Shown here one piece after another: positions 28,693 to 59,319 of a DNA stretch of 64,000 bases. The translations under genes and the position numbers were made by a program. Origin of the DNA: an uncultured Lachnospiraceae bacterium (GTDB taxonomy: Bacteria > Bacillota > Clostridia > Lachnospirales > Lachnospiraceae). Every line of letters begins with the position of its first letter. Within the stretch, counting starts at the first letter, position 1. Where the stretch lies: positions 6,037 to 70,036 of the forward strand of contig CAMJHQ010000013.1 in assembly GCA_946405625.1 (NCBI GenBank), in the 5' to 3' direction. The notes below the pieces were generated by a model. The model made no database searches. It was not told the DNA's origin and worked only from the letters and a program-made list of their open reading frames with translations.

Positions 28693-30180
28693 TTATATTT
28701 TTTTACTCTTCTTCTTAAACTTCGAAGTAATGATTCCGAGTATTTCCACCACCAGATTATCCTTTGATACCAGCAGGATAATTCCGTATGCCGTGAAGAA
28801 TATCATCGCCGAAAACATAAGTCTCAAAAAACTGTTTAATTCCGGATGGGTTGTAAAAACAATATATTTCAGCCAGAATGCTCCGGCTATCGGAGCTATT
28901 GCCGCAGGAATCAGTTTTATAAATTTTATATCTCCGAACAGCTTTACGGGCTGATCCTTAATGGCATTCATCTGATATATCGTTACACCCAGCTCTGCGG
29001 CAAGCGTACCGATAGCAGCTCCGACAACCGCAAGTTTCGGAATAAGGATTGCATTTAATATCAGGTCTATAACAGCGCCTATCACTTCGGAATAAAATAC
29101 TTTCTTCTCCATTCCGAGAGGAACCATCATCTGAATACCCGATACATTTGTTATTCCTATCAGTATAAGAGTCGGCATGAGTACGATCATCGGAACTATC
29201 GCTCCCGAATACTCAACACCCGAAAGAAGAGTTATTCCTTCCTCGGCAAACAGCATAAAGTACACACAAAGAGGCACCGCCATAAGTAATATGAGATGCA
29301 TCGTTTTACGTAGTATCCGGTAAAACTCAGCCATCTTTGCCTCCTGAACGAAAGTTGTCGCTCTCGGAAGAAGCACCGTACTTGCCGACGTTACGATTCC
29401 CATCAGAATATTCTTGATCTTTACAGCTGCTCCGTATAATCCGACAGCATCATCATCCTTCATAAAGCCCAGCATTACCTGATCCAGTCTGGTATAGATT
29501 ACCGTCGCTATCGACATTGAAAAGAACAGTAAAACCGGTTTTCTGTGCTGTTTAAAATCGTAATCACGTCTGGGTTTAAAACTGATATACTTACGTGCAT
29601 TTATCAGATTGAGTACATCTGATGCAGCTGTTGAGAATATCGTTATTCCGCCATAGATAATATAATCATCCTTGGATCTCACCATCAGAAACATTGCAAT
29701 CAGTCCGATGACTTTAAAGATAACGGATCTTGATGTTATATAGGAATACATCTCAAGTCCCTTATACATCCACTCGATACCGATCGCATTCAGGAAAATG
29801 AGCGTACTCATTACGATCAGGAGAACCTTCTCTCTTCCGAATTTCGGAACTATTTGCAGCGAAAATCCAAAAGCAATATATACAAGTATGCTCATGAAGA
29901 TATTGATCATAAGAAGCTCATGAACAACTCTTGTCAGCTTCTCTTTATCATCTCTGACCTTCGCAACCGCCTTCACACCATAGTCGGGAATTCCGAGCTG
30001 TGCAAACATTGCAAAGTAAGTTATTACAGCTGCCGCAAAATCAACCTTTCCCGTTCCCGTCTTTTTAATTACTCTCGAAGCATACGGAAATGAGATAAGC
30101 GGAAAAAGAAATCTCGACATCGTAAGGATGGCGTTCATTATCATATTCTTTTTTATAGAAACAGGTTTTCTATCACTCAT
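28693..30180 (-). CDS. Polysaccharide flippase (Wzx-like, MOP superfamily), second copy
   Basis: MSDRKPVSIKKNMIMNAILTMSRFLFPLISFPYASRVI is a typical Wzx N-terminus, and the protein is polytopic. The start is uncertain; the track gives a GTG at 30210. Confidence 0.75.
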   Translation of the reverse strand: MSDRKPVSIKKNMIMNAILTMSRFLFPLISFPYASRVIKKTGTGKVDFAAAVITYFAMFAQLGIPDYGVKAVAKVRDDKEKLTRVVHELLMINIFMSILVYIAFGFSLQIVPKFGREKVLLIVMSTLIFLNAIGIEWMYKGLEMYSYITSRSVIFKVIGLIAMFLMVRSKDDYIIYGGITIFSTAASDVLNLINARKYISFKPRRDYDFKQHRKPVLLFFSMSIATVIYTRLDQVMLGFMKDDDAVGLYGAAVKIKNILMGIVTSASTVLLPRATTFVQEAKMAEFYRILRKTMHLILLMAVPLCVYFMLFAEEGITLLSGVEYSGAIVPMIVLMPTLILIGITNVSGIQMMVPLGMEKKVFYSEVIGAVIDLILNAILIPKLAVVGAAIGTLAAELGVTIYQMNAIKDQPVKLFGDIKFIKLIPAAIAPIAGAFWLKYIVFTTHPELNSFLRLMFSAMIFFTAYGIILLVSKDNLVVEILGIITSKFKKKSKKI

Positions 30181-30299
30181 TATTATCTCTGAAATCCTTA
30201 TTTTTAGCACGATACGGATAAATCAAATATACGTACCGGCAACTGATACAACTCGTGAAACCTTACACGACTCTGTCACAAGTTTGCGGCGGCTGATCA

Positions 30300-32330: not shown

Positions 32331-32333
32331 TAA

Positions 32334-33688
32334 CTAATGTACCTCAGAATTCATTAACTCTCTTTTGCGAATCCGTCTTTTAGCGACAGACAGAATATCG
32401 GAATGTATATAATAATATCTTATCGCATTTCCGATAAGCAGGATAAACGGTGTAAATATTATATTCATCAGCTGCGGATCTATCATGGCTCTTACCATGA
32501 TCACCATAAATATCCATGCAGTCACGATATCATTTGTATCCATAAGAAATTTCATTATGATCAGCAGAATTGCCGTCATAAGCAGGAATATAACGATACC
32601 GTTCTTTATGATTATGTTCCAGTAAGAACAGTCAACAAACATATAGTCCGGAGTTCCTCTGTAACCATATAATCTCCATTCAAATTTGCTTCCGAAAAGA
32701 TGTATTCCAAACTCTTTTATAGCATCTCTTGTCAGAAGCAGTCTGTTCGACAGTTTGGCATTCAAAGCTCTGTAAAATGCACTTCCGTCGGAATAATTAT
32801 ACCCTATATAAAGTGATATCAGGATCAATCCTATAAATGCGGCTATAACCAAAACTCTGAATAATCTGTTCTTCAGGAACCTTGTACGTATCAGCTTTGA
32901 ACACTTGATACACAGCATTCCGGCAACAAAAAGGAGAACACAGTAGTATACACCTCTTGTATCGGTACGAACCTTCAAAATGTAATTAAGTACAAGTATT
33001 ATCACATACTTTGCAAGCTCATTTACCGACAGATCTCTCTTTCTGTTTACAAAACCATCCAGATAAACGACAGTGATGAAAAGGCTCGGTCCCATCGTAG
33101 GATAATCAAATCCCAGATAATCTCTGGTAACTCTCTCACCTTCAACATTTCATCCAGATAAACGACAGTGATGAAAAGGCTCGGTCCCATCGTAGGATAA
33201 TCAAATCCCAGATAATCTCTGGTAACTCTCTCACCTTCAACATTTCTGTCTACATTTTCTATCAGACTGTAATAACCCGCAAACAGCCCGGCCTTATCAC
33301 AGAGAATTATCAGAATTATAAAGGCCAGCATCGAAATTGCGAGAACCTTAAATACCTTATCAAAATCAACATCCTCTGATGCGATCATAAAGACCAGCAG
33401 TATCATCAGCTCTCTTATTGAACCCGAGCTGAGGATAGTAAGTGCAAAGACTGCCGACGCCAAAACCAGAGAAACGATATTTCTGAAATAGCCTTTTATC
33501 CCGATTGATAAACACAGCAAAAAAAACGATATCCCGAACCTGACCAATCTGGCAGATTCGGGGAGTTCAAACTTACCAACCAGACTTGACATAAGCATTC
33601 CGGTTATAACGTAAAAAACCAGGGCCACGGTATAAACCATTTCCCAATTCCTGAATTTTAAAGTTTTCAGAGAATAATTAACTTTCAT
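32334..33688 (-). pseudogene. Wzy-like repeat-unit polymerase / O-antigen-ligase-like membrane protein, disrupted by a 95-bp tandem duplication
   Basis: The two track ORFs (33047-33688 and 32334-33095) share the peptide MGPSLFITVVYLD encoded by the two repeat copies. Deleting one copy gives a 1260-nt, 419-aa polytopic ORF. Confidence 0.75.
33056..33245. repeat. Perfect 95-bp tandem duplication (2 copies)
   Basis: 33056-33150 and 33151-33245 are identical base for base (catccagataaacgacagtgatg...caccttcaacattt). Confidence 0.97.
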
Positions 33689-33698
33689 ATCACATTTC

Positions 33699-34736: not shown

Positions 34737-34764
34737 TTCTCATCATACTTTCTGTCTGAAAACC

Positions 34765-37013: not shown

Positions 37014-37038
37014 CTTTCCCAATCTTCATTCATATAAT

Positions 37039-37980: not shown

Positions 37981-37982
37981 AG

Positions 37983-38980: not shown

Positions 38981-39895
38981 CTATTTAAGCTTCAGCTCAA
39001 GAACCACATGTTTCTCGATTTCATCCGGATCCGGAATCTTCATGTAGTCTCCGTATAACATTTCAAGATAATTCTCTATCTCTTTCATTATCTGGAATCT
39101 TTCGGTTCTTCCATCAAATGTATAATCGATCCATTTCATCTTGCATGCCCATCTTCTCTCATACATTTCACCAAAGAAATGCTTTCTTCCGGCAGGCACA
39201 ACCACATACTTCGAATTATTGTTTCTGCAGAATGAATTAACCTTATTCCACAGCTTCGTCCATGTATCTACACTGAAGAATGAGAAGAGGCGTCCGAGGA
39301 GAACCTTCTTTTTGAAAACACTCTTAAACTCCTTGTTATCTCCTGCCAGCTTCATATAGAGATCCTTCTTTGAAAGGAACACTCTGCAGGACCATGCAAA
39401 GCCTACGGCATATGTAAAGAAACCGTGGATGTTCCTGAGGAGCTTGTTGTTAAATGTATTCTCCATCACGAAAAGGTCTATATAAACTCCACATTCATCA
39501 GATTCGGCATCTTCTCTTGCTCTGCATACCGTACCCTTCTTTCTGATCCTGGAAATACCAAGTCCGTAACCCTTGGTAAGTTCAGGTGCATGCAGCCAAT
39601 ATCTGTCACTCATATCTCTGTCGAAGAATTTCTTGACCTTCTCGAAATCCTTTCTGGATATGAGAATATCTACGTCATCATCCCAAGGGATAAATCCGCC
39701 GTGTCTTACGGCACCGAGCGAGCTTCCGCCTGCCAGGCTGTAATAAATCTTATTCTTCTTACAGAATTCATTAAAATCTATAAGCATTTCAAAAAGAACT
39801 CCCTGAAGATCATGCAGCTCTTCATCTGTCAGAACCTTCAGTCCGTTCTTCTCCGCATCTATATGCTTCATCATATTAACAGTTGATAAACCCAA
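38981..39895 (-). CDS. licD: LicD family phosphotransferase (phosphocholine or polyol-phosphate transferase)
   Basis: IYYSLAGGSSLGAVRHGGFIPWDDDVDILISRKDF is the LicD signature (DxD). Probable TTG start at 39895 with AGGAGG 6 nt upstream. Alternative starts are ATG 39922 and GTG 39928. Confidence 0.85.
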   Translation of the reverse strand: MGLSTVNMMKHIDAEKNGLKVLTDEELHDLQGVLFEMLIDFNEFCKKNKIYYSLAGGSSLGAVRHGGFIPWDDDVDILISRKDFEKVKKFFDRDMSDRYWLHAPELTKGYGLGISRIRKKGTVCRAREDAESDECGVYIDLFVMENTFNNKLLRNIHGFFTYAVGFAWSCRVFLSKKDLYMKLAGDNKEFKSVFKKKVLLGRLFSFFSVDTWTKLWNKVNSFCRNNNSKYVVVPAGRKHFFGEMYERRWACKMKWIDYTFDGRTERFQIMKEIENYLEMLYGDYMKIPDPDEIEKHVVLELKLK

Positions 39896-39924
39896 AACTG
39901 TATCCTCCTGTATCGAAAACATCC

Positions 39925-41019
39925 TCACGACCTGAATATATCGATCGTACGGCGCATTCCCGTTCCTATATCATACTTCGGAGCCCATCCGAGTGCTTTG
40001 AGCTTCGATCCGTCAAGTCTCGCCTTTGTGGCCTTGCTGTATCCTGCTTTCTCTACTTCATCCGGAAGGTCGAAAACCACCTGCTTACCGGAATAGCCTG
40101 CTATAAGTCCCGCAAGATCCTTCAGCGTTATATCCGACGCCTCATCTGCTATATTATATGCTTCACCGCATTCACCCACGAGGAGTACCGTCAGCAGTCC
40201 CGAAACAGCATCTGTAACATATGTATATGAGTAAAACTGGTTTCCTTCGCTCTTAAGAACTATATCCTCTCCTGCTATACCCTTCTTGATAAACTGAGAT
40301 ATAGCCTTAGTGTCCGAATCGAGCATTGTAGGGCCGTAAGAACGCGTAGGGCGTGCTACTACCACATCCAGTTCTTTCTGCCTTATATAAGCCTGACAGA
40401 GGGCTTCAGCGCACCGTTTACTCTCAGGGTAGCCTGCACGAAGTGTATTGGAATCTATATATCCGCAATAGTCCTCCTTAAAAAGCTCTGTATCTCCCCT
40501 GTTCTCTCCGTATATTTCATTCGATGACGCAAAAAGAACCCTCCGGGAGCCATGCGATGCCGCATACTCCAGCAGGTAATAAATTCCGAGTATGTTTGAA
40601 GTTACCGTACCTATCGGATCGGTAGCATAAGCAACCGGATGTGTATTGCTTGCAAGATGAAGTATATAATCCGGATTACCCAGTTCGTCACCGACTATAA
40701 CCTTGTTGATATCATGTTCGATAAAATGTATCTTCAGCGGATCACTGAGATCATCCTTCGAATCGTTTTCGGGCATATATTCACCGAAACGCTCTGCAGC
40801 CTTTTCTCTGTTTCTTCCCACTGCCGCAATCTTACAATTAAGTCCGTCAAGCTTGTTCTTTCTCATAATGACATCGATGATACAGCTTCCCATCATACCG
40901 GTTGCCCCTGTAATAAGCACAGTTTTGCCGGTAAGCTTCTCCCACGGAAGCGATATACTTCTTACCGAATCGATATCCTCTATGTATTTTTCAGAACCGT
41001 ACAGTTTTTGAGAATCCAT
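39925..41019 (-). CDS. NAD(P)-dependent epimerase/dehydratase-type SDR (candidate reductase partner of the cytidylyltransferase)
   Basis: VLITGATGMMGSCIIDVI (Rossmann TGxxGxxG) and YPESKRCAE (YxxxK). 364 aa. Confidence 0.8.
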   Translation of the reverse strand: MDSQKLYGSEKYIEDIDSVRSISLPWEKLTGKTVLITGATGMMGSCIIDVIMRKNKLDGLNCKIAAVGRNREKAAERFGEYMPENDSKDDLSDPLKIHFIEHDINKVIVGDELGNPDYILHLASNTHPVAYATDPIGTVTSNILGIYYLLEYAASHGSRRVLFASSNEIYGENRGDTELFKEDYCGYIDSNTLRAGYPESKRCAEALCQAYIRQKELDVVVARPTRSYGPTMLDSDTKAISQFIKKGIAGEDIVLKSEGNQFYSYTYVTDAVSGLLTVLLVGECGEAYNIADEASDITLKDLAGLIAGYSGKQVVFDLPDEVEKAGYSKATKARLDGSKLKALGWAPKYDIGTGMRRTIDIFRS

Positions 41020-42597: not shown

Positions 42598-44010
42598 CTA
42601 CTTAGATCCTTTCTTTCCCAGAACCGCACCAAAGGTCTTGATTATGATCTTCAGATCAAGTCCCAGAGAAAAATTCCTAATATAATCATTATCAAGCTTA
42701 ACAACTTCTTCGAAATCATCGATATCCGATCTTCCTGAGGTCTGCCACATGCCTGTAAGTCCCGGCTTCATGGCGAGACGGCTGAGGTGATGCGGATCAT
42801 ACTGCTGATATTCATCCAGTGTAGGAGGTCTGGTTCCTACCAAAGACATATCTCCCTTAAGGATATTCCAGAACTGCGGAAATTCATCCAGACTTGTTTT
42901 TCTGATGAATTTGCCGATAGGCATGATTCTCGGATCATCTTCCATTTTGAACATCAGACCCTTGATCTCATTCTTATCCATAAGTTCCTTCTTACGCTCT
43001 TCGGCATCCATATACATGGATCTGAATTTATACATCTTGAAGATCTTTCCGTTTTTACCGACTCTGTCCTGACAGAACAGTGCAGGTCCCGGCGACTGCT
43101 TCTTGATGATCGGTGCAAGGAATATATAGAAGATGCCCGTAAAGAAAAGCCCTATGATCGATACGAGAATATCGAAGATTCTCTTCACAAGCTGTGCACC
43201 TTCAGAGCCACGCGATATGCTCGAGGTTATTATCGTATAATCATCAATAGTCTCAATCTGAGTATTTGAAAGAACTGACATGTCGAGATTAAGTGCGATA
43301 TGTGTGGTTATACCCATATTCATGAAGAGCTCGACCATCTCTCTTCCGTCTTCCGAATCGGCAAGTATATAAGCCTCATTTACTACATTCGTCTTAACAA
43401 ATTCAAGGATGTCAGATTTCTTGATCCTCGGGATCTTATTAAATGCATCAACATCCTTAGCGCCTCCGTCCTTCTCATCAAGAAGAACTATTCCGACATA
43501 ATCATTGAAACCGTTATTGTTTGAACTAAGCGACTTAAGATACTTCTCGAGCATGCTCGGGTAAGTAACTATAATAACCTTGTTTGTGTTCTTACCCTCT
43601 CTGAAGCTTTTCCAAAGATGTCTCTTCCTGAGACTTCTCATGACGGTCATTATAAAAATATCAAAGGCAAAAAACATCACAAGAATCTGACGTGAATATA
43701 CTTCCGATTCCTTCGCCAGAAACAGATATGTAAAGAGTGCAAAAATAAGCTCGAGATTGACTACTATTACACTCAGAAACTCCTTATTTTTTCTCCTCTT
43801 CAGAATATTTCTGTGGAAAGAATTAAAAAGCATAAGGATTATATAGAGAGCCAGGATCACAAGAACGATCTTCTCATATAAAGGAAGATATATATGATCC
43901 TCGCTTCTGTCGGTTCTGATAAGATAAGCAATCGCAAGCGATATCACTATGGAGATCATATCAATTAAGATAAAATCCGCATGTTTTGCTTTAACACTAC
44001 TTGTATTCAT
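42598..44010 (-). CDS. Initiating undecaprenyl-phosphate sugar-1-phosphate transferase (WbaP/CpsE-like polyisoprenyl-phosphate hexose-1-phosphate transferase)
   Basis: VKRIFDILVSIIGLFF...YKFRSMYMDAEE...DPRIMPIGKFIRKTSLDEFPQFWNILKGDMSLVGTRPP is the bacterial sugar transferase signature. Four N-terminal TM helices. Confidence 0.9.
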   Translation of the reverse strand: MNTSSVKAKHADFILIDMISIVISLAIAYLIRTDRSEDHIYLPLYEKIVLVILALYIILMLFNSFHRNILKRRKNKEFLSVIVVNLELIFALFTYLFLAKESEVYSRQILVMFFAFDIFIMTVMRSLRKRHLWKSFREGKNTNKVIIVTYPSMLEKYLKSLSSNNNGFNDYVGIVLLDEKDGGAKDVDAFNKIPRIKKSDILEFVKTNVVNEAYILADSEDGREMVELFMNMGITTHIALNLDMSVLSNTQIETIDDYTIITSSISRGSEGAQLVKRIFDILVSIIGLFFTGIFYIFLAPIIKKQSPGPALFCQDRVGKNGKIFKMYKFRSMYMDAEERKKELMDKNEIKGLMFKMEDDPRIMPIGKFIRKTSLDEFPQFWNILKGDMSLVGTRPPTLDEYQQYDPHHLSRLAMKPGLTGMWQTSGRSDIDDFEEVVKLDNDYIRNFSLGLDLKIIIKTFGAVLGKKGSK

Positions 44011-44055: not shown

Positions 44056-45285
44056 CTATCTGACGATCACTGTTCCCTGAATCTTGGCATTAACTTTAGC
44101 CATCTCTTCTCCGGCCTTAATAAGTGTATTTACACGGCTCTTTCCGTATCTTGTCAACAGTATTACGTCATTTCCGCCGCGTGCGGCAATCAGAGCATCA
44201 GCACTGTTCTTCATGTCATCCGGCACAACAATGAGATAATCATTATCGGCAACAGCCTTGGATAACTTGTCCTTACTTACTATAGTCTCTGAGAGATCAC
44301 CGGATAAAACACCTGCCTTAAGGCCCAGACTCTTAAAGGCCTCCTCAATGCTATCGACCATTTTATCAGAAAATGAATATTTATCAACCGGAGCCAGAAC
44401 CACTATCTTTCCTGTATCCGATCCTTCAATGCTGACAGCCAGTCTCTTCATATCCTGGGCAAACCTCTTCTGCTTTAATGAAATGTCAGCAAATTTCTTC
44501 AGGCCCGCAAACTCAATATCATCAGCAGTTCTTACATTGTCTCTGATGATAAAGATCAGGAGCAGCACAACCAGTATAAACAAAACACCGGCTGCCCCAC
44601 CGACAATAAAATACTTTATTATCGATTTGATATTGATCGAACCCTTGCCTATTATCAATTCATCCGGAACACTTGCTTCATCTATAACCTGAATGTTATC
44701 AACCAGACCGAGTTCCTTTGAATTCTTCACAAACTCTTCCGTAACTGCTTCTGCAATATCATGTGCTCTCTTTGCATTTACATCGGTAACGACTATTATC
44801 ATCACATGAGCACCCTGGACATTCTTGTTAACCATCCAGGACAGATCATAAGGAGTAATGTTCTTCATATCATCATATGATCTGAGGTCCAGCTTATCTA
44901 TTACATTCTGAAGTGCCGATTCACTTACACACAGAGATCCCGCATCATATGCCAGATGAGTCATAATGTTGTTGTTATCAACCTTTCCGCCTTCATCAAA
45001 CCCATCAATATTATAATCCAGATACAGCTTTGCCCTGGATTCAACGGTATTCTCAGGTCTGTGTGCATCCGTATAATTCTTCATGGAATTGAAGTATGAT
45101 TCCCTGTTCTGATTCATAATCGTATGAATACTTGTTATCCTTGACAGATTATCCTTCTGCTTCTTATAACCGAGAAACGCAAGTCCACCGGCTGATAAAG
45201 CCCCGATCAGAACTACGAGCACAAAGTTCTGCCAGACATATATGAAAAACTGTCTTAAGTCGATAACTCGTTCCTTATTATTCAT
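44056..45285 (-). CDS. Wzz/CpsC-like chain-length regulator fused to a degenerate BY-kinase-like (P-loop fold) C-terminal domain
   Basis: Wzz-type N-terminus (IDLRQFFIYVWQNF plus TM) with a second TM before RDNVRTADDIE. The C-terminal roughly 140 aa align by eye to CpsD-type kinases, but Walker A is replaced by LAPVDKYSFSDKM and there is no C-terminal Tyr cluster. GAGGAG SD before ATG 45285. Confidence 0.75.
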   Translation of the reverse strand: MNNKERVIDLRQFFIYVWQNFVLVVLIGALSAGGLAFLGYKKQKDNLSRITSIHTIMNQNRESYFNSMKNYTDAHRPENTVESRAKLYLDYNIDGFDEGGKVDNNNIMTHLAYDAGSLCVSESALQNVIDKLDLRSYDDMKNITPYDLSWMVNKNVQGAHVMIIVVTDVNAKRAHDIAEAVTEEFVKNSKELGLVDNIQVIDEASVPDELIIGKGSINIKSIIKYFIVGGAAGVLFILVVLLLIFIIRDNVRTADDIEFAGLKKFADISLKQKRFAQDMKRLAVSIEGSDTGKIVVLAPVDKYSFSDKMVDSIEEAFKSLGLKAGVLSGDLSETIVSKDKLSKAVADNDYLIVVPDDMKNSADALIAARGGNDVILLTRYGKSRVNTLIKAGEEMAKVNAKIQGTVIVR

Positions 45286-45404
45286 TTTCAAATATCTCCT
45301 CAATTTATATAAAATGCCGAATTCCCACACAAAAACAAAATCGTTGCGGATGCAGAATCAGAATATTATTACACAAAAATATGCTTCTGTAAACCAACAG
45401 TACT

Positions 45405-45482: not shown

Positions 45483-47024
45483 TTAGATCATTTTCCGCTC
45501 GATCATGTACTTCTTTGCATCCTTCATAAAGCTCCAGATCATCAGGATCATTATGATACCTATAGGGAATGCCGATATGATACTTACGCTCTGTATATTG
45601 TTCATACTGCTTTCCGAGAATACAAGTGCGATCGGAAGTGCAATAAGGAGCAGGCACCAGAGAAGTGTTATAAGAACATGTGGCTTCTCATCCTCTCCGA
45701 GCTTCTTATAGCTGTAACAAGCCGCTGTATAAGCGATCGAATCAAACGATGTTGCGTAGAATGCGATCATACATACCATTGTAAGGATCAGGATAAATGT
45801 AGCGCATGGCATCGTATTAATTATATTTATTATAAGTGCATAAAGGTCACCTGTTGCCTCATACTGTGCAATGAAATCAGCTGCACCATCAATCTGCATG
45901 CCAAGGCTGTAGTTTCCGAGAACAACAAATGATACGATAGTTGAACCTACACCGAATACATATCCTCCGATTATAGTCTGCTTGATAGTACGTCCTCTTG
46001 ATATATTTCCGATGAAGAAAGGTGCTGCTATACACCATACCATCCAGTATGCCCAGTAATATATTGTCCAGTCCTGAGGGAAGTTGTTTGTTCTTGCAGG
46101 ATCTGTATAGGTTGAAAGTTCAATAAAGTGCTGGAACATTTTTCCGAGGCTCTGGAAACCGTTCTCAATTATGAATCTGCCCTGACCGCCGATTATAAGC
46201 ACAAGAATCAGAAGTCCAAAGAACAGATATATACAAAGCTTAGCCAGGAAGCTTATTCCCTTAAATCCGTGAATAACTGCATATGTATATACCGCACATG
46301 TTATAAGAAGGATTATTATAGTTACCGCTGTTCTGCTGATGGTAATTCCGAAAAGAGTTACCATGATTTCAGCCATAAGAGGAGTCGCAACACTGAATGT
46401 TGTTGCTGTTCCTGCAAGAAGTGCAAAAAGTGCAAAAAGATCTATGATTCTTCCAAGCAGTCCGTCTGCACGCTTATCACCGATAACCGGGCGGCAGGCC
46501 TCTGAATATCTCTGACGGTTTCTCTTTCTTACATGAAGCATGAAACCGAATGCAACCGCAAGTACAAGATAAAATGCCCATGGGATAAAGCTCCAGTGGA
46601 ACAGCGGGAAAACTCCTGCCCATTCCTTGATATCTCCCATTTCAGCAATATGAGGATTAGTAGCATACATTACCCATTCAGCAAATGAATAGAAAAGGAT
46701 ATCTGCTGCAAGTCCGCAGGTAAACATCATACTTCCCCATGTAAAGAATGAATACTTAGGTTTCTCATTCTGATCTCCGAGAACTATATCTCCATACTTG
46801 GAAAAAGAAAGGAACAGTGAGATTATAAGCACTCCCACACCTATTACAAGATAATACAGTCCGACAGTATCTCCAAAGAAGAATCTCACATCTGAGATAA
46901 CTCCGTTAGCCTGCTCCGGGAAAATAAACAGATATACAACCAGTGCCATTATAAGGATGAACGGAACCAGTGTGATCATCCAGTCAATTTTTCCTTTGCT
47001 TACTTTCTTTTTTTCTTCGCTCAT
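45483..47024 (-). CDS. BCCT family transporter (probable choline uptake)
   Basis: WTIYYWAYWMVWCIAAPFFIGNISRGRT is the BCCT signature. 513 aa with about 12 TM helices. The choline assignment comes from the adjacent lic genes and is an inference. Confidence 0.88.
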   Translation of the reverse strand: MSEEKKKVSKGKIDWMITLVPFILIMALVVYLFIFPEQANGVISDVRFFFGDTVGLYYLVIGVGVLIISLFLSFSKYGDIVLGDQNEKPKYSFFTWGSMMFTCGLAADILFYSFAEWVMYATNPHIAEMGDIKEWAGVFPLFHWSFIPWAFYLVLAVAFGFMLHVRKRNRQRYSEACRPVIGDKRADGLLGRIIDLFALFALLAGTATTFSVATPLMAEIMVTLFGITISRTAVTIIILLITCAVYTYAVIHGFKGISFLAKLCIYLFFGLLILVLIIGGQGRFIIENGFQSLGKMFQHFIELSTYTDPARTNNFPQDWTIYYWAYWMVWCIAAPFFIGNISRGRTIKQTIIGGYVFGVGSTIVSFVVLGNYSLGMQIDGAADFIAQYEATGDLYALIINIINTMPCATFILILTMVCMIAFYATSFDSIAYTAACYSYKKLGEDEKPHVLITLLWCLLLIALPIALVFSESSMNNIQSVSIISAFPIGIIMILMIWSFMKDAKKYMIERKMI

Positions 47025-47026
47025 CT

Positions 47027-47791
47027 TTAAAACTCCTTCACATTACTTCGCTTTTGAAGATATATTTCATAGCTTGGATCAAGCTTTACAAGCTCTTCAA
47101 GATCATCAACTTCAATGATGTCTTCATAATTCATCTCGGTAATACCGAGTCTGAAATCATCGAAATGGCAGAACATCGGAACATCATCCCAGTATATCTG
47201 ATCATTTCCGCTTTCAAACTCCTGTTCCAGATGCCTTCTCAACTTTTCTCCGTCCGATTTATTCCACCTGGATATGGAGAACAGCTGCCATCCGTCTTTT
47301 CCTCCGGTTCTTGAACACGATGTCACAATTCCATCCTTATCAATCTCCATCAGCCATTCGTTTGTTTCGCCTTCACACCTGACCGCATTATATCCGGAAA
47401 GCGTGAATTCCGATTTCAGAATATCAGGATTATATATGATCTGATCCCCATCCAGGATCATGCAGTCTCCGAGATATTCTCTTGCAGCATACAGCGAGCT
47501 TATATTATTGCAATCCGCATAATACGGATTCTCGATAAGTGTTATATCGCTGTACTTCTCTGTAATAACCTTGAACTGTTCTTTCAGATAACCGACCACT
47601 ACATATATTTCTTCTATCCCGTTTATATGAAGCGCATCAATTACAGAATCAATCATCCTCTTTCCGTTAACCTTAACCAACGGTTTGGGTATTTCTTCGG
47701 TCAGCGGATGCATCCTGACTCCGGAGCCCGCGGCCATTATTATCGCTCTTTTCACTAAGCTCTTTTCTACCGACATCATCTCTTCCATCAT
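47027..47791 (-). CDS. licC: CTP:phosphocholine cytidylyltransferase (LicC-like)
   Basis: AIIMAAGSGVRMHPLTEEIPKPLVKVNGKRMID, YVVVGYLKEQF, TNEW and IYWDD align by eye to pneumococcal LicC. Confidence 0.8.
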   Translation of the reverse strand: MMEEMMSVEKSLVKRAIIMAAGSGVRMHPLTEEIPKPLVKVNGKRMIDSVIDALHINGIEEIYVVVGYLKEQFKVITEKYSDITLIENPYYADCNNISSLYAAREYLGDCMILDGDQIIYNPDILKSEFTLSGYNAVRCEGETNEWLMEIDKDGIVTSCSRTGGKDGWQLFSISRWNKSDGEKLRRHLEQEFESGNDQIYWDDVPMFCHFDDFRLGITEMNYEDIIEVDDLEELVKLDPSYEIYLQKRSNVKEF

Positions 47792-49548
47792 GATATCTTT
47801 TCCATTTCTTCTAATGCATATTTATAGAAATCCTTAGCATATCTGTACTGCTTGATTCCATAATCTCCGAACTCGATTCCGAGAGTTCCTTTGTATTCAG
47901 TCCAGTTAGACCAGAGGAATCCGCACATTGCTACATAGCAGTAGATTTTCGCTTTAATACTGTGATCCGGAGTCTTTCCGAAATACAGTTTCATCAGATT
48001 ATCTATCTGTGACTTATCATAATAGCTGTAGATAGAAAACATCGCTATATCCACATGAGGATCCTGCATTCCTGCATATTCCCAATCCGTCAGCTGAAGA
48101 CTTTCCTGCTTGTCACCCTCCTGCTTATAAAAAAGGAAGTTATCCGGAACCGCATCAATATGTGTCAGGCACCAGTCCTTCGGCTGCTCGTCAACGAACT
48201 TTCTGAGGCTCAGGATATTTGCTTTAACCTTATCATAATCCTTGAAGTCCGATCCCTTTTCGCCCATCAGGCTTTCATAAAAGTCTATCTTTTCGAATAT
48301 ATCAAATGTATGGCTTACCTTCAGTTTCAGATCATGGAAGGCTTTAAGCTTCTTCATACATTTCTTAAGATCATCCTGATCTTCAGGATCGCAGGTTCTG
48401 ACACCTTCAAGGAATTTAGTTATCTTATAGCCCTTATCCGGCTTTATGTAAACCGGATCATCACATATCCCACGACCTGAAAGTATCTCGAAAACTTCGG
48501 CCTCTTCATCTCTGTTGATCAGGTTCTCCGTTCCCTCGCCTGGGATTCTCATGATATACTTCTCACCTTTAACAGTGAAAAGAAATGATCGATTGGTCAT
48601 TCCCTTTTTCAGAACTGTTATATCTTTTATATCTCTGTTATCACATTTGAGAGCATCCGAAATCGCATCAATCGCATCTGATTTCAGATGTTCGGATTCA
48701 TAATCCAGTTCTCTGAGCTGTTCATATGTATTTATCTCAACCGCATCCTCGCCCGGTACTACCTTGGCCTGAACGATCATCTTTCCGTTATCGAGAAGAG
48801 TCTCTTCCCAGAAGCAGTCATCATATCTTCTGTCCTTGCAGAATTCTTCCAGCTTCCTGCAGACAGTCACTGCTTCCTCACCCGCAAGATAGGAAATACC
48901 TATCATTGCATTTCCGCCTGAAATCTCAGATACAAGTTCATTTTTTCTGTTCACGCGGACATCGCTCTCTTCGCTCTGCCTGTCGCTTACCATATACCAT
49001 GAGTAAAGTTCTGTCTTACTGAACGGATTGGATGCACACCATATGTCACATGGAATTATATATGTATTGGAAATATATTTTGAAACGAGCTTAAGTGTAT
49101 GAATATTGTTCTTTATCGCATAATCCGGATTTATAATAAGATCAACTCCGTAATCATCAATAAGATATTCATATCGCTCCTTCATGAAACCGGCTACTAC
49201 CTTGATGTCTTTAACTCCGGCTTCATGCAGCTGTTTTATGATTCTTTCAATCAGCAGTTCTCCCTTTACCTCGATAAGTCCCTTCGGAATAAGGGTATTA
49301 ATCGGAACCATTCTCATTCCGAATCCTGCTGCAAGTATTATCGCATTCTTGGGTGCCTTTGCCTTTTGTTCTTTCTTGGCAAGGGCTGTAAGCTTCATAT
49401 CTTCCGAAAGGTATCCCTGTTCAATAAGGGTTTTCAGAGATTTATTCACAGCTCCCAGTGAAAAACCTGTTTCCTCGGCCAGTGCCCTCTGATTGGTATA
49501 CTTATTATCAATCATGTATTTCAGAATATCGAGTGTTTGTTTGTTCAT
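47788..49548 (-). CDS. Three-domain protein: winged-HTH + LicC-type nucleotidyltransferase + LicA-type choline kinase
   Basis: N-terminal LDILKYMIDNKYTNQRALAEETGFSLGAVNKSLKTLIEQGYL (wHTH). Then AIILAAGFGMRMVPINTLIPKGLIEVKG (NTP transferase). Then KGMTNRSFLF, LTHIDAVPDNFLF and LTDWEYAGMQDPHVDIA (choline kinase/APH motifs). ATG 49548 is preferred because AGAGGG lies 8 nt upstream. Confidence 0.85.
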   Translation of the reverse strand: MNKQTLDILKYMIDNKYTNQRALAEETGFSLGAVNKSLKTLIEQGYLSEDMKLTALAKKEQKAKAPKNAIILAAGFGMRMVPINTLIPKGLIEVKGELLIERIIKQLHEAGVKDIKVVAGFMKERYEYLIDDYGVDLIINPDYAIKNNIHTLKLVSKYISNTYIIPCDIWCASNPFSKTELYSWYMVSDRQSEESDVRVNRKNELVSEISGGNAMIGISYLAGEEAVTVCRKLEEFCKDRRYDDCFWEETLLDNGKMIVQAKVVPGEDAVEINTYEQLRELDYESEHLKSDAIDAISDALKCDNRDIKDITVLKKGMTNRSFLFTVKGEKYIMRIPGEGTENLINRDEEAEVFEILSGRGICDDPVYIKPDKGYKITKFLEGVRTCDPEDQDDLKKCMKKLKAFHDLKLKVSHTFDIFEKIDFYESLMGEKGSDFKDYDKVKANILSLRKFVDEQPKDWCLTHIDAVPDNFLFYKQEGDKQESLQLTDWEYAGMQDPHVDIAMFSIYSYYDKSQIDNLMKLYFGKTPDHSIKAKIYCYVAMCGFLWSNWTEYKGTLGIEFGDYGIKQYRYAKDFYKYALEEMEKIS

Positions 49549-49587
49549 GAACATTTCCCTCTCTATATTTTATGAACACCGTTATGG

Positions 49588-49806: not shown

Positions 49807-51771
49807 TTAATTGAAAAACTGAGTCGGATCTACATACTCTCCTGAAATACTGATTTCAAAATGAAGGCATGGTCCGGTTACTGCTCCGGTATTTCCCGAT
49901 AAAGCAATTTCCTGTCCTGCAGTCACTTTATCACCAACCTTACATTTACATTCCGAAAGATGCTTAAATGTAATGATTATATCATTTCCCGCGTCAATCT
50001 TTATCGTTTTTCCGTCCTTTACGGAATCGTCTACAGAAACAATCGTTCCTGCTGCCGGTGCCTTTACCGACGAACCGACTTCACATGCTATATCTACACC
50101 ATTATGTGCCTGTTCCATCTCTGTTACCGGATTATACTGAGGTTCGCTTGAAAAAGATCTTGTTATTACCGAGCTATAAACCGGCCATGTAAGACTTCCC
50201 GTCAAATCCGAAGCATCTTTCTTTTTGTTTTCCGAAGTATCAGCCTCAGACAGATAAACAATCGGCTTATCGTTCAAAACTTTAACGTTATATTTTGAAC
50301 GTAATACCCCCCTCTCATCCTTATAAACTTCTATTTCTTTTGTTATATGAAAACAATACTCCTCACCATCTATTTCTTTATAACCCACTACAAGTCTTCC
50401 GGAAGGATTAGCATAAGCATATACTTTTTTATCAATTCCGTTTTTATCAATTCCGTTTCCTTTAATCCATCCGGTCTGCATGGCTCCGGAATCACTGAAA
50501 GAATAGTATTCGCCTTTTATAGAAGCAACCCTTCCCTTTATCATCTTAAATCCATCTATCCTCTGAATACTACCGGCACCGGCATAAACCGGAACCGCAC
50601 TGGGTTCTCCAAAATAATAGTATTTATCATCTATTAATTTCCATCCTTGATCAAGCTCTCCGTCGCTTTCAGCATGATACCAATCTCCGTTGCCATCCTT
50701 ACCCCAGCCTGTCATCATAGCTCCATTTAAAGTGAAATAACAGGCTTTATAACTATTTTCTATTGGCATATAGATAAACTCCTTATCAGCCAGCATATTA
50801 TAGCCTTCTATTTCAAAAGAATAATCATCATGATCTCCAAAGTGATACCATTTTCCATCCACATTCATCCAGCCCTGTGCTAATCTTCCCGATGGAAGAG
50901 CATAACAATACTCACCGGTTTCGTTATTCTTTATCCAGCCGGTCCGCATATTTCCGTTAGAATCAAAGACATATCTGTTTCCATTGATATCAACGCTTTC
51001 GCCGCGATAATACTGATCTTCGCCATCTCCGAAATAATATTTCCATTTATCGCCGTCTTTTACCCATCCGTTGGCCTTTGCTGCTTTACTTTCGTCATTG
51101 GTTACTACAGCAGTTACTTCCTCTTTTGTTATATCGGCATTTTTCTTTTCAGCTTCTTTCGGTCCGGCCGCTTCCTTATCCTTATTCTCTACAATCTTTT
51201 TATCTTCCTTATCTGCGTTCTCTTCAGTTCTTTCGTCTTCCTTACCAGCGTTCTCTGCAGCCTTTTCATCTTCCTTATCTATGTTCTCGTCGGTCTTTTC
51301 GCCTGTCTTATCCGCGTTCTCTTCAGTTCTTTCGTCTTCCTTATCTATGTTCTCGTCGGTCTTTTCGCCTGTCTTATCCGCGTTCTCTCCGGTCTCTTCA
51401 TCTTCCTTATCTGTATTCTCGTATGCCTTCACCGATATATCTATGATATTTTCCTGTTTCTTCGCATCTGTTGAGAACACTGTAATCTTTCTCTCTTCTG
51501 CAGTTTCTACCACTTCTGTCGTCTTGTTCACTTCAGATTCTAATGTCTTGTTCACTTCAGAATCAGCTGTATCAACAACCGAATCCTCATTATCTTTTTC
51601 AGATTCATCCGCCAAATCTTCTGAATTATCATCTTCGCTGCTTACCGAAACCGTTGTTTCTCCCTGCTTGATCAATTCATCCGCATGAACTTCTTTACCG
51701 GCCGGTGCAGCGACTGAAATAAAAGCTGCTGTTGCAGCTGCTGCAAGCCACGGACTTATCTTTTTTCTCAT
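49807..51771 (-). CDS. Secreted cell-wall (choline)-binding repeat protein with a C-terminal M23 peptidase domain
   Basis: Signal peptide MRKKISPWLAAAATAAFISVAAPAGKEVHA. Acidic tandem-repeat spacer. CW_binding_1-type repeats (GWVKDGDKWKYYF, TGWIKNNETGEYCY, QGWMNVDGKWYHF). M23 motifs HNGVDIA and GNTGAVTGPCLHFEI. Confidence 0.88.
   Translation of the reverse strand: MRKKISPWLAAAATAAFISVAAPAGKEVHADELIKQGETTVSVSSEDDNSEDLADESEKDNEDSVVDTADSEVNKTLESEVNKTTEVVETAEERKITVFSTDAKKQENIIDISVKAYENTDKEDEETGENADKTGEKTDENIDKEDERTEENADKTGEKTDENIDKEDEKAAENAGKEDERTEENADKEDKKIVENKDKEAAGPKEAEKKNADITKEEVTAVVTNDESKAAKANGWVKDGDKWKYYFGDGEDQYYRGESVDINGNRYVFDSNGNMRTGWIKNNETGEYCYALPSGRLAQGWMNVDGKWYHFGDHDDYSFEIEGYNMLADKEFIYMPIENSYKACYFTLNGAMMTGWGKDGNGDWYHAESDGELDQGWKLIDDKYYYFGEPSAVPVYAGAGSIQRIDGFKMIKGRVASIKGEYYSFSDSGAMQTGWIKGNGIDKNGIDKKVYAYANPSGRLVVGYKEIDGEEYCFHITKEIEVYKDERGVLRSKYNVKVLNDKPIVYLSEADTSENKKKDASDLTGSLTWPVYSSVITRSFSSEPQYNPVTEMEQAHNGVDIACEVGSSVKAPAAGTIVSVDDSVKDGKTIKIDAGNDIIITFKHLSECKCKVGDKVTAGQEIALSGNTGAVTGPCLHFEISISGEYVDPTQFFN
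51205..51420. repeat. 33-bp (11-codon) in-frame tandem repeats encoding the acidic spacer
   Basis: ttccttatct...ttcgtc units. Two 66-bp blocks (51271-51336 and 51337-51402) are nearly identical. They encode DKEDE(R/K)TEENADKTGEKTDENI. Confidence 0.85.
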
Positions 51772-51809
51772 TGTTCAGATACCTCCTTACTTTTAATCTT
51801 TAATCATTT

Positions 51810-51881
51810 TGTAATATCTTTGTAACATTCCCGCGGTATAGTGTAACTTTTTAATTACATTTCTGTTACATTTTTGTTACA
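51810..51881. promoter_or_regulatory. Cluster of six TGTWAH hexamers with 11-bp phasing (WalR/OmpR-type box candidates)
   Basis: Minus strand: TGTAAC-aaaaa-TGTAAC-agaaa-TGTAAT (51881 down to 51854). Plus strand: TGTAAT-atctt-TGTAAC (51810-51826) and TGTAAC (51842-51847). All lie between the candidate -10 element and the M23 gene start. Confidence 0.45.
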
Positions 51882-51886
51882 TTTTG

Positions 51887-51915
51887 ATTATAGTCCTCGT
51901 TAATCCCAAATACAA
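51887..51915 (-). promoter_or_regulatory. Candidate sigma-A promoter of the M23 choline-binding protein gene
   Basis: On the minus strand, TTGTAT, a 17-nt spacer (ttgggattaacgaggac), then TATAAT. Confidence 0.5.
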
Positions 51916-52087
51916 TTTAAGAATTTATTAAATTCACAAAACTCTTTTTTTCCAAGATTTCGGCAAATCCAAAAAGGGCCCGGTAGTGTCTTTTTACTAA
52001 TTATTTTTCTTATTTGTCTTTATTGTTAGTAACGCCCTAAATGCAGCCAAGTTTTACTGAAGATGTAATCATATCGTAATCCTTACA

Positions 52088-52128
52088 ACAAAAAAGGTTC
52101 GGCACGCATCATACGTACCGAACCTTTT
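52088..52128 (-). terminator. Terminator after the 1213-aa choline-binding protein gene
   Basis: aaaaggttcggcacg / cgtaccgaacctttt forms a 15-bp stem with one wobble or mismatch and loop catcata. The run acaaaaaagg gives the U-run on the minus strand. Confidence 0.7.
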
Positions 52129-52200
52129 AAACCTGTTAAGTTCGACTATATCTTACCCATTTCTGTAAGCCTGATTTTAGCTCACTTGATTCTTTACGGT

Positions 52201-55200
52201 TTAGTTTTTGCTTATAAGTTTTCCGTTAGAATCAAATACAAACTTATCCGAATACATGTAAGTTGTTCCTGTTGTAACACGTCCTGCAGTAATATAATAT
52301 GTATCACCGTCGATCACATGCCAGCCTGCAAGCAAGCCATATCCATCCTCTGCGACATAGTATATTGATTCGTAACCAAAGAATTCATCCTTTCTTTTAT
52401 AGAATCCCGGAGTTCTGCGTGCCGAATAATCATTATTTGTTAAATTAACGTTTCCGGCATAATCAGCGAATTCACTCTGTAACCTGCCGTTTGATATATA
52501 ATATGTTATACCGTTTTGAGTCAGATATCCCTCATATGCTGTTCCATCCGGATTTGAATAAAACCAGCCGCCCCAATAGTTTGATTTATACCATCCGCCG
52601 GTAAGCATCTTTCCGTCATCTGCAAAAACATAATTTTTATTGGCTTCAGGTACATACTGTACTCCGATAAGCATCTTACCATCGTCAAAATAATACTTAT
52701 CTTTTCCTATCGTAATAAACTTATCTGATAATGCAGATTTTCCTTCACTTTCTAGATAGTACCAGTTGCCGCCGTATCCTTCATAGATATCTTCCACATA
52801 TTGCCATCCCTTCGGCAGTTCAGTTATTCTGCCATTCTTATCAGCCCCGTAAAATGTACCAGCATCTATGAACTTCTTATCCGTTATCAACACTCCGTCA
52901 TCCCTGAAATAATAATCTGCTTTGTCTATTGTATATAGACCTGAACTGTAAACATCTCCATCCTTAAGATAGTACCATTTATTGTCAATCTTCTTCCATC
53001 CGTTTACGGTAATCTCTTTTCCGTCTTCTCCAAAGAGTCCTTCACGATAGTATTTCTTTTCTTCGTCATAAATCATTCCACCATATCCCTTAACCATAAT
53101 GCCTTCTTCATCAAATGCATAGTAAGCACCATTTATTTTCATAATAGCATCATAGTTTACGGAATAATCAGAATTAAGATAATACCATGCAAGTTCATTT
53201 ATTATATTGTCTGACTCATCAGCGAGATATCGGTGTATTCCGCTTACCCATCCGGATTTCTTAACAACCTTGCCACTATTATCTACCAGGAAATAGTCAT
53301 TTCCCTCAGAAAGATATACTACCGAATTCTTAACTAATACTCCATATGAATCGATTACATAGATATCCCCTGCGGAATTCTTCATGGGCACAGTTCTTAC
53401 GGTACCATCTTTGTTAACAAAACATTCCACATCATACAAATACCAATTTTCATGGGAATAAGTTTTTTCCCATCCGGCCTTACCGGTTACAAGAGCCCCA
53501 TCTTCGCCGAATAAGTAAACCGATGATCCAACCCTAAACAAATCCGTCGCCATCGTTCCGTTCATATCGAAGTAATATTTTTTTCCTCCGATGGTCTTCC
53601 AACCCTTAACCAGTTCTCCGGTCTTTTCACCGTAATGCCACACGGAATCATATTCGCGGATCCAGCCTTTCTTCATATCACCTCTCTCGCCAAAGTAATA
53701 CTGTTTTCCGTCTATTATATGATTGCCTCTACATAAGAGACCGTTTGAATCAGTATAATACCAGTTGCCATTTACTTGTTTCCATCCTTCGGTTATCACA
53801 CCGCTTGAACTTGCATAAAATGGCATATTACCATACATATTTGCAATATCATAAAAACCGGTCTGAAGAACTCCGGACTGATCCAAATAATACTTATTTC
53901 CATCCTTGGTTAAATACTCGTATCTTCTTAAACCGAATCCTTCTATCGTCTCTTTTCCCCCGATATTATTTACATACCCGAAGAAATACCACTTTCCGTT
54001 AATCTTAGTCCATCCCTGAGCCAGATTTCCGTTTTGAGTCGCATAAAACCAATTACTATAAATATGGTTTCCTTCAGAATCAAAGTACTTGAATTCAATC
54101 CATCCGTTCTGCTTTAATACGCCCGATTCATTAAAGTAGTAAGAATACTTACCGATTTCATTTACATTTTTGATCATACAAAATCCGTTTACCGTGTAAG
54201 TACCATCAGACTCATTATTCGGATATCCGAAGAAATAATACTTATCATCAATCTTTGTCCATCCGGACTGAAGAACACCCTTCGAATTCGAATAATACCA
54301 GTCTATATTCTCTTTCCCATCCGAATCTTTGTATATATCTTTAATCCATCCTATCTGCAGAGCTCCGGATTTATCAAACCAATATGGTTCATCCTTGATA
54401 AAATAAACGCCATCTCTAAGCATGTCTATTCCGTAAATCGTCCATTCTCCATCAGAGTTTTTATAGGAATCTCCGAAATAATACCATTTACCTTCTATTT
54501 CCGCCCATCCCTGTACAATAACACCGCTGACATTCGAATAATAATATATAGACTGATCACCGCAAACATCTATCCATCCCTTTTTAAGAGCTCCGGATTC
54601 GCCAAAATAATATGTTTTCCCATACAGATTAGCAAAAAACGTCTGCATATAATATCCGTCCGGAATATACTTATTATCTGCCGTCAGAATCGTATCGCCA
54701 AAATGATAATCATTATTATCGATGACCTGCCATCCTTTAGCGAGCTTTCCATCAGGTTTTGCATAAAAAACGTTACCCCATTGTTTTATCCAGCCAACTT
54801 TCATAACTCCGTTGTCTGCAAACAGGTAGGAATCATCATAAATATTATATATTCCGTTTATATTCATGTAATATCCATCAAGAATACTCTTTCCATCGGA
54901 ACCTTTATAAGTATATCCAAAGAAAAAGGAAACTCCGTTCTGAGTAAGCCATCCCTGTGCAAGATGACCGCTTTTATCAGCGAAATACCAATATCCTCCG
55001 TCTTCGATCCAGCCGGTCTGCATATATCCCTCGGAATCAAATCTATATCCCACTCCATCTATTACTATTATTCCGTTCTTGTAATATTGATCTGAAGACG
55101 CAGCATAGTAATATCTCCACTTGTCTCCTTCCTTATTCCAGCCCACAGTGACAGGCGCCATTACATCTTCATCATTGGTTATTACGGGTTTTATCTCTTC

Positions 55201-55842: not shown

Positions 55843-55957
55843 TAAACCGTTACCTCCTTCCCTCTTTTCAACACATACTGTTAAACAGCATTTGGCCACA
55901 TTAAAATTTTAAACTCATTTACTACATTACACCCAAAATATTTTTTCGACATCATCC

Positions 55958-55986
55958 AATATATCGAAATATTCGTATATATACAA
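55958..55986 (-). promoter_or_regulatory. Candidate sigma-A promoter of the 52201-55842 gene
   Basis: On the minus strand, TTGTAT, a 17-nt spacer, then TATATT. Confidence 0.35.
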
Positions 55987-56124
55987 AATTGTTCAGCTAT
56001 CTATATCAAATAATTAACCCACGGCAATCAAATAAGTTATAGCCTAGATTTACTTTCTTATTTTCCGCAAGGCAATGAGTTATTTCATGTCTTAAAATGT
56101 ACTTCGCAGTTTTGGCGGAAGGCA

Positions 56125-56158
56125 GAAAAATAGCGAGACAGCCGAAACTGTCTCGCTA
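56125..56158 (-). terminator. Terminator after the LRR choline-binding protein gene
   Basis: tagcgagacag ccgaaa ctgtctcgcta forms an 11-bp perfect stem. The gaaaaa flank gives UUUUUC on the minus strand. Confidence 0.75.
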
Positions 56159-56170
56159 TATAAATCAATA

Positions 56171-58888: not shown

Positions 58889-59032
58889 CTTTTCATACCT
58901 CTCTTTACCGCCAAAGCGGCATTACACTTAAAGTTTATAGATTACAGCACACTACACACACATTTTTTATAATAACAGCGAAATAAGCCAAAATTTTTGC
59001 TGTTATTATATTAACACTTTAAAAGTACTCAA

Positions 59033-59061
59033 ATGATATTATAGACATAAACATGTGTCAA
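59033..59061 (-). promoter_or_regulatory. Candidate sigma-A promoter of the LRR protein gene
   Basis: On the minus strand, TTGACA, a 17-nt spacer, then TATCAT. The leader is about 135 nt and contains an 11-bp inverted repeat (58969-59009). Confidence 0.4.
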
Positions 59062-59274
59062 CGATACAAACACGACATTATATACCTACATTCTCTTAAA
59101 CAAATGTTTACTCAATATCTTCAAATACATTCTTAATAAAAATAATCTAAAATACTTACCAAGTCAATATACATATATAACAAAAATTATAAATTTGCGA
59201 ACAAATAATAATATTCATTATCTGACACGTAAAAAGGCCCGGGTTGTCACGTAAAAACCATCAGCTTGAAACGT

Positions 59275-59303
59275 AAAAAGGCCCGGCAGTTTCCTGCCGA
59301 GCC
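59275..59303 (-). terminator. Terminator after the 1204-aa choline-binding protein gene (shared hairpin family)
   Basis: ggcccggcag tttc ctgccgagcc forms a 10-bp stem with one G-U pair on the minus RNA, followed by UUUUUACGUUUC. Confidence 0.7.
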
Positions 59304-59319
59304 TGAGACTTTTATAACT

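Follow-up and report, generated by a model that had tools for sequence, protein, structure and literature searches.

What does a perfect tandem duplication inside a polymerase-like gene mean for the surface-glycan locus that carries it: has the gene just been lost, is it held in the OFF position of a switch, or was a copy added during assembly? The question is raised by a stretch of 64,000 nucleotides analysed here as a whole (hereafter the window), whose host is probably an uncultured Lachnospiraceae species from the rumen or gut of a herbivore, represented by a metagenome-assembled genome. The GltX protein encoded in the window shares no more than 86% identity with any GTDB representative, its best matches being MAGs of rumen Lachnospiraceae (RUG, RUI and RGIG series), and one member of the protein cluster of the polymerase-like gene bears the annotation 'Eubacterium sp.' MAG. 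Positions 33056-33150 of the window equal positions 33151-33245 base for base, according to both direct reading and string comparison, and Tandem Repeats Finder reports an array at 33056-33246 with a period of 95, 2.0 copies, 100% matches and a score of 382. All three routes agree with the two identical 95-bp copies claimed in a preliminary description of this DNA. The unit corresponds to nt 444-538 (aa 148-180) of a Wzy-like gene on the minus strand, which the duplication splits into ORFs of 213 and 253 aa:

33151..33245, minus strand: 95-bp unit, copy 2, reached first in transcription; in the native frame it encodes aa 148-180, RNVEGERVTRDYLGFDYPTMGPSLFITVVYLDG
33056..33150, minus strand: 95-bp unit, copy 1, reached second by the ribosome; carries the ATG (33095) of the C-terminal fragment ORF
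33047..33688, minus strand: N-terminal fragment ORF, 213 aa, native residues 1-179 followed by a 34-aa frameshifted tail
32334..33095, minus strand: C-terminal fragment ORF, 253 aa, native residues 167-419, with the conserved T210, R213, R284, D321 and G332

Since 95 is not a multiple of 3, the frame shifts after residue 179 and meets a stop 34 codons further on; the N-terminal ORF accordingly reads ...RDYLGFDYPTMGPSLFITVVYLD and then continues into the out-of-frame tail EMLKVRELPEIIWDLIILRWDRAFSSLSFIWMVL. The C-terminal ORF begins with MGPSLFITVVYLDGFVNRK, at the Met of ...PTMGPS... in the copy that is second in transcription. Deletion of one copy in silico yields a single ORF of 1260 nt (419 aa). 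The ORF translations and this deletion fully reproduce the frameshift, the internal restart and the restored reading frame that had been proposed earlier: a surface-glycan gene has its frame broken by a perfect tandem duplication within it. We found no Shine-Dalgarno sequence at a good position before the C-terminal ORF, but weak scores are common among the genes of the operon, and therefore this comparison is uninformative with respect to the internal restart.

An origin of the 95-bp repeat by chance is impossible, the expectation (64,000 x 4^-95) being practically zero. It is the sole long perfect tandem repeat detected by Tandem Repeats Finder within the 64-kb window, where the remaining rows correspond to diverged repeats, either coding, in surface-protein genes, or in intergenic spacers. 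Identity at period 95 spans 96 nt, which leaves a microhomology of 1 nt (C) at the novel duplication junction between 33150 and 33151, where ...CACCTTCAACATTT is followed directly by CATCCAGATAAACG.... With a junction homology of just 1 nt, illegitimate template switching or slippage is the likely cause, and the duplication would have arisen in this way. We detected no flanking repeat or hairpin beside the 95-bp unit that would favour its duplication. Slippage between flanking repeats was considered and rejected: the sole nearby near-repeat, of 12 nt (33040-33051 vs 33243-33254), is spaced by 108 bp in the one-copy state, not by 95.

The identity of the disrupted gene has to be approached through its relatives. 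The restored 419-aa protein matches no Pfam family at E<=0.01 and no NCBIfam family, and by itself it is recognised by no curated Wzy, Wzy_C, EpsG or O-antigen polymerase model; profiles built from 7 and from 88 sequences retrieve no PDB sequence at E<=10. At E<=1e-3, an exhaustive phmmer search gathers 1,567 family representatives; the best 150 of these 1,567 are, with few exceptions, single chains of ~380-420 aa. Among 88 sampled family members, 22 match Pfam Wzy_C (PF04932; best E 2.9e-8), with matches spanning profile positions ~2-149 of 149, and one of the 22 (P0159) is the sole member to exceed the gathering score (34.1 bits vs 31.7). For the AlphaFold2 model calculated on the 88-member alignment (pLDDT 91.0, pTM 0.90), the top Foldseek match in the PDB is the O-antigen ligase WaaL (7tpg_B, probability 1.00, TM 0.48-0.49), followed by FtsW and RodA. 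The TM-score of the model to WaaL is only moderate. About 12 TM helices are predicted, with a large outer loop after TM9. Across the family, G161, R284, D321 and G332 do not vary and R157 and T210 hardly vary, while R213 is constant in the seven closest homologues. Combined with the positive-inside rule, the model leads us to infer an outer-loop location for all of these residues.

The architecture of ~12 TM helices, the large outer loop after TM9 and the conserved outer-loop Arg and Asp residues are all shared with Wzy/O-antigen-ligase-like proteins (Wzy_C, PF04932; WaaL, 7TPG), with WaaL as the best fold match and the SEDS proteins FtsW and RodA as remote fold relatives; the gene also stands beside those for Wzx, an initiating transferase and a Wzz-like protein. 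The protein differs from recognised Wzy_C enzymes in that it falls below every Pfam and NCBIfam threshold, has a TM-score to WaaL of 0.48 and belongs to a family outside the curated models. Based on the Wzy_C matches of the family, the WaaL-like fold and the Wzx/Wzy context of the locus, we predict that the gene encodes a divergent Wzy_C/WaaL-like enzyme, most probably the repeat-unit polymerase. The designation "Wzy-like" given to it earlier is in this way upheld, albeit indirectly, by the family matches, the fold and a locus with Wzx, transferase and chain-length genes. The genes of the locus that bear on this assignment are:

28693..30210, minus strand: Wzx-type flippase (Pfam Polysacc_synt; weak match to NCBIfam Wzx_EPS), sharing the operon direction
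38981..39928, minus strand: LicD-family phosphotransferase, adjoining IspD-like and SDR genes (39925-41738)
42598..44010, minus strand: initiating phosphoglycosyl transferase (Bac_transf)
44056..45330, minus strand: CpsC/Wzz-like chain-length determinant (weak match)
45483..49554, minus strand: choline uptake and activation genes (BCCT transporter, LicC-like nucleotidyltransferase, choline kinase fused to a nucleotidyltransferase)
49807..62934, minus strand: four surface proteins with choline-binding repeats (an M23 peptidase among them), flanking the locus

GT2 transferases and three Acyl_transf_3 proteins are also encoded here. The LicD-family gene next to the IspD-like and SDR genes suggests transfer of a CDP-alcohol or of phosphocholine, and the gene content as a whole has the appearance of a Wzx/Wzy pathway whose product would be a choline-linked glycopolymer, either teichoic-acid-like or capsular. 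The polymer is plausibly decorated with phosphocholine and may serve as an anchor for the choline-binding proteins. In the preliminary description these proteins were placed downstream of the polymerase gene; the choline-activation genes and the choline-binding proteins do flank it, but they lie upstream in transcription.

The WaaL-like fold also admits a function other than polymerisation, namely that of a WaaL/TacL-type ligase, which moves the finished chain to its anchor and whose loss would alter attachment of the polymer instead of chain length. The best structural match is itself a ligase, Pfam Wzy_C takes in ligases and polymerases alike, and the locus resembles the choline teichoic-acid pathway of the pneumococcal type, in which TacL, a protein of the O-antigen-ligase family, makes LTA. 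We nevertheless regard a ligase as an unlikely candidate, because a Wzx/Wzy pathway needs a polymerase and this is the sole Wzy_C-like protein beside Wzx, the initiating transferase and the Wzz-like protein, in a synteny with those genes that is kept in orthologues at 31-59% identity. A repeat-unit polymerase remains our preferred assignment.

That no second gene of this kind is present had been claimed before, and within the window a profile scan, Pfam, hhalign and fold comparison all agree with it. Among 183 stop-to-stop ORFs of >=80 aa in the window, the family profile matches just the two fragments, and no other large ORF of the window matches the Wzy_C, EpsG or O-antigen polymerase models. 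Two other proteins were considered as a possible second polymerase and rejected, namely the DUF6077 protein (27547-28656) and a 599-aa membrane protein, each of which obtained an hhalign probability of 0.5% against the family profile. The fold of the DUF6077 protein has no significant match in the PDB (all E>1), and WaaL is absent among the matches listed.

The duplicated segment covers the loop with R157 and G161 as well as the first half of TM6. The native part of the N-terminal fragment consequently comprises predicted TM1-5, the outer loop to which the conserved R157 and G161 belong and one half of TM6, and the conserved residues are divided, with R157 and G161 on one polypeptide and T210, R213, R284, D321 and G332 on the other. 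A functional split gene was considered and rejected: the split occurs on one contig only, the orthologues are single-chain proteins, and the conserved residues are parted between the fragments. The alternative of conserved and separately functional split proteins, left open in the preliminary description, is likewise contradicted by the confinement of the split products to one contig. Judged from its sequence, the two-copy allele is most likely null for polymerisation, and the loss-of-function reading proposed earlier holds in view of the frameshift, the premature stop and the parting of the conserved residues.

The state of the gene in related strains can be read from public metagenomes. Along its entire length the restored protein is identical (100%) to P0001, the representative of its cluster (NCBI, ENA and Logan assemblies), and at least 16 public metagenome contigs encode exactly this 419-aa protein. 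We read 24 related loci of the same species, 10 of them P0001 loci and 14 reached through neighbouring genes, from ~21 sample accessions, some of which may represent the same biological sample assembled twice. All 24 have the unit in a single copy and lack the junction; the 14 loci reached through neighbouring genes all possess an intact gene of 419 or 403 aa, and in L010 the unit carries SNPs and is single-copy in the alignment. Apart from the duplication, contig L007 shows 0 mismatches to the window over 7,981 bp and contig L008 shows 0 mismatches over 7,488 bp, while L002 differs by 17 mismatches in 21 kb. The one-copy contigs that are 100% identical over 7.5-8 kb come from sample accessions other than that of the window, and the window has no private SNP across 26283-43688.

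The same picture emerges at the protein level. In a collection of 15 billion proteins both split products are found on a single contig of 86,961 bp, which we take to be the window's own; apart from the two fragments of the window, each member listed for the 34-member 90% cluster has a length of 419 or 403 aa. No second independent duplication, of any length or position, was found in the 24 same-species loci or among the listed members of the 34-member cluster. Distant orthologues at 59%, 52%, 40% and 31% identity are single proteins of ~410 aa, and those at 59% and 31% are single ORFs in syntenic loci. A search with an exact 34-mer from the unit retrieved no match from GTDB representative genomes or JGI metagenome contigs; the JGI contig L094 has the locus but carries SNPs in the unit, hence this negative result reflects exact matching. 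Relatives of P0001 in JGI metagenomes were not confirmed by protein search. These comparisons identify the 419-aa form with one copy as normal and ancestral. The duplication is private and extremely young, because one-copy contigs match the window at 100% and the split products are confined to one contig. This accords with the very recent event proposed in the preliminary description, and the comparison of orthologous loci suggested there returned one-copy genes or single ORFs throughout (the 24 related loci and the orthologues at 59% and 31%).

Such a degree of privacy is also what would be expected if the organism itself were one-copy and the extra copy had been produced during or after assembly, by wrong traversal of a loop in the graph, by merging of contigs with an untrimmed overlap, or by gap closing. 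A single contig carries the two-copy allele, ~21 other sample accessions are all one-copy, including strains 100% identical to that of the window, and the copies are perfectly identical. Furthermore, a supposedly deleterious null allele is accompanied by no suppressor or other private change, and the sister contigs have low coverage (~3-10x, as judged from their SPAdes names). On the other hand, de Bruijn assemblers cannot create junction k-mers that are absent from the reads, so these k-mers must come from some reads unless contigs were concatenated later. An untrimmed-overlap join would be expected to leave an overlap of k, and the 95/96 bp observed here matches no usual default k of SPAdes (21/33/55/77/99/127) or MEGAHIT (up to 141). 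The 64-kb window also contains no further perfect duplication of such kind. We found no contig ending at the unit boundary, which would be a sign of a graph loop; the sole contig that ends near the gene (L109) stops ~450 bp away, at the end of the upstream acyltransferase gene. We give an artefact an appreciable probability, though a lower one than a true duplication.

Duplications of this kind have been described in S. pneumoniae, where reversible duplications in cap3A (type 3), cap8E/wchA (type 8) and tts (type 37) cause phase variation of the capsule (Waite 2001, 2003, as summarised in PMC4243769, PMC4022640 and PMC11163986). The resemblance is close: there, as here, a surface-polysaccharide gene of a Gram-positive bacterium is inactivated by a perfect tandem duplication that arose spontaneously within it, nothing but the duplication distinguishes the OFF from the ON allele, and precise loss of a copy restores the gene. 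However, the pneumococcal cases are experimental, with ON and OFF colonies, measured reversion and recurrent, varied duplications, as opposed to one metagenome-derived contig in our case. Moreover, the pneumococcal targets are a UDP-glucose dehydrogenase, an initiating transferase and a synthase, while here the target is a Wzy-like polymerase, the loss of which is expected to be costly.

This parallel is the basis for an evolved phase-variation switch, by which the surface polymer would be toggled OFF and ON through gain and precise loss of tandem duplications. In its full form, the two-copy allele would be real and represent the OFF state of a reversible switch, in which a wall glycopolymer that bears choline, and on which the choline-binding proteins would dock, is no longer polymerised. 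The anatomy is that of the pneumococcal cases, an otherwise identical ON allele is in circulation, and perfect 95-bp tandem repeats are intrinsically unstable. Yet the duplication occurs once, with no other in the 24 same-species loci or the listed cluster members; there is no flanking repeat or hairpin to favour recurrence; and the block would fall on a polymerase, where it is expected to be costly, in contrast to the initiating or synthase step affected in pneumococcus. The reversible ON/OFF switch contemplated in the preliminary description thus draws on analogy, and one contig, the absence of a second duplication and a 1-nt microhomology without a predisposing repeat speak against it. We consider an evolved switch very improbable, and its full form, with the choline-bearing docking surface, is equally hard to credit. 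If the switch were true, phase variation by duplication in the pneumococcal style would also operate in uncultured gut anaerobes, and the Wzy step would be added to its targets.

The explanation that we favour as probable is a recent, spontaneous and private loss-of-function event, a head-to-tail duplication of 95 bp in the single Wzy-like gene, which is revertible in principle. According to this explanation, lipid-linked repeat units would still be made and flipped but would not be polymerised. The copies are perfect 95-bp direct repeats, so that precise loss of one of them would restore the gene exactly; this may proceed independently of RecA, by template switching or slippage. In tetA assays in E. 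coli, tandem 101-bp repeats are deleted RecA-independently (PMC7145654). That system likewise has two adjacent perfect direct repeats of ~100 bp within a gene and a null allele that reverts by precise deletion, although it is an engineered plasmid assay in E. coli and here we deal with the chromosome of an anaerobic Firmicute. Reversibility is a generic property of tandem duplications, and we saw no sign of an evolved switch at the locus, that is, neither recurrence nor a flanking repeat of the right spacing.

By analogy with pneumococcus, a null allele of this gene might be costly once fixed. Late mutants of the Wzy pathway in S. pneumoniae (wzy, wzx and side-chain transferases) need suppressors in cpsE, the gene of the initiating transferase (Xayarath & Yother 2007, as cited in PMC4022640 and PMC4243769). 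The similarity to the present case lies in the block after initiation in a Wzy-dependent pathway. The difference is that the pneumococcal late-step mutants carry suppressors and none is visible here, the initiating transferase being identical to that of intact strains. We found no suppressor in this protein, which is residue-identical to its wild-type counterparts; at least 21 contigs encode the same sequence, and an intact polymerase gene accompanies it on each of the six that we read. Because the initiating transferase is identical and private SNPs are lacking, the two-copy allele would be very young, minor in the population, or not real.

If the allele is real, it marks a strain or subpopulation in which the choline-linked surface polymer has very recently ceased to be polymerised, and altered anchoring of the adjacent choline-binding proteins, altered phage adsorption and altered host interaction are possible. 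It would also show that knockouts by revertible duplication, familiar from the capsule genes of pneumococcus, occur naturally outside pathogens. Events of this kind are already known, and this would be a further instance. If, on the contrary, the second copy is an artefact, the locus calls for caution with pseudogene calls in metagenome-assembled genomes.

Several annotations can be improved. A single disrupted gene is the proper annotation for the two ORFs, in place of two hypothetical proteins, and "divergent Wzy_C/WaaL-like" is a suitable label for the family of ~1,570 representatives, for which no curated model exists. In the DUF6077 protein, the nearest GT-C-type match by fold is STT3 (probability 0.47), and its invariant H-x-D-x-DD motif is suggestive of a GT-C glycosyltransferase.

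The intact 419-aa one-copy form of the Wzy-like polymerase (P0001) belongs to a Wzy_C/WaaL-like family of about 1,570 representatives at 50% identity, and no curated Pfam or NCBIfam model catches this query. Several members form part of far longer fusion proteins, including P0040 (868 aa), P0051 (831 aa), P0079 (837 aa), P0089 (845 aa), P0100 (890 aa) and P0152 (1433 aa).

Comparison of the window with four same-species contigs (L102, L105, L107 and L108) revealed that the spacer separating the polymerase gene from the acyltransferase gene upstream of it (33689-33698 in the window) occurs in two lengths among strains, approximately 10 nt and approximately 42 nt; one further contig, L109, stops just short of this spacer. 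Near-identical strains also differ in the region of choline-binding proteins that lies upstream of the lic genes for choline uptake and activation (window 49807-56500 versus the same-species loci L094 and L095): L095 carries two M23 peptidase genes in this region and L094 none, and in L094 a 1213-aa choline-binding protein adjoins the choline kinase gene. In the more distant loci, where the syntenic polymerase orthologue is 59% identical, the gene that follows the polymerase encodes 864 aa in L092, whereas in L093 it is broken to a 319-aa remnant, and the other strand there carries an 81-aa ORF. L093 also has a shorter LicD (251 aa, versus 295 aa in L092), and these differences together suggest that other genes are disrupted in related loci, or in their assemblies.

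The window also contains a second glycopolymer gene cluster and a module that looks like an extracytoplasmic glycosylation system, followed by a gene for a DUF6077 protein:

8215-18038, second glycopolymer gene cluster
11884-13332, TagF-like glycerophosphotransferase, within this cluster
13423-14913, second Wzx-like flippase of the window, within this cluster
18867-26618, minus strand, extracytoplasmic-glycosylation-like module
27547-28656, minus strand, DUF6077 protein

The second cluster additionally encodes UDP-galactopyranose mutase, GT8, GT2, GNAT and DegT aminotransferase proteins, and a Wzy-like gene is absent from it. The module comprises an 894-aa double-GT2 protein, two DUF2142 polytopic proteins, a 599-aa membrane protein without a family match, and a small GtrA-like gene, as called on sister contigs. 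In the DUF6077 protein, the motifs H136-x-D138-x-D140-D141 and RLWQGK are both invariant among 17 homologues. Its AF2 model (pLDDT 83) gave no significant match in the PDB; the closest GT-C-type match, itself not significant, was the oligosaccharyltransferase STT3 subunit (TM 0.38, probability 0.47). The DUF6077 protein may be an uncharacterised GT-C-like transferase.

One RNA gene was identified next to the second glycopolymer cluster:

7993-8172, minus strand, 6S (SsrS) RNA gene (Rfam RF00013, 61.6 bits, full-length model)

Two imperfect short tandem repeats, at 11671-11787 (38 nt, 3.1 copies, 88% identity) and 27445-27525 (34 nt, 2.4 copies, 87% identity), lie largely in intergenic spacers.
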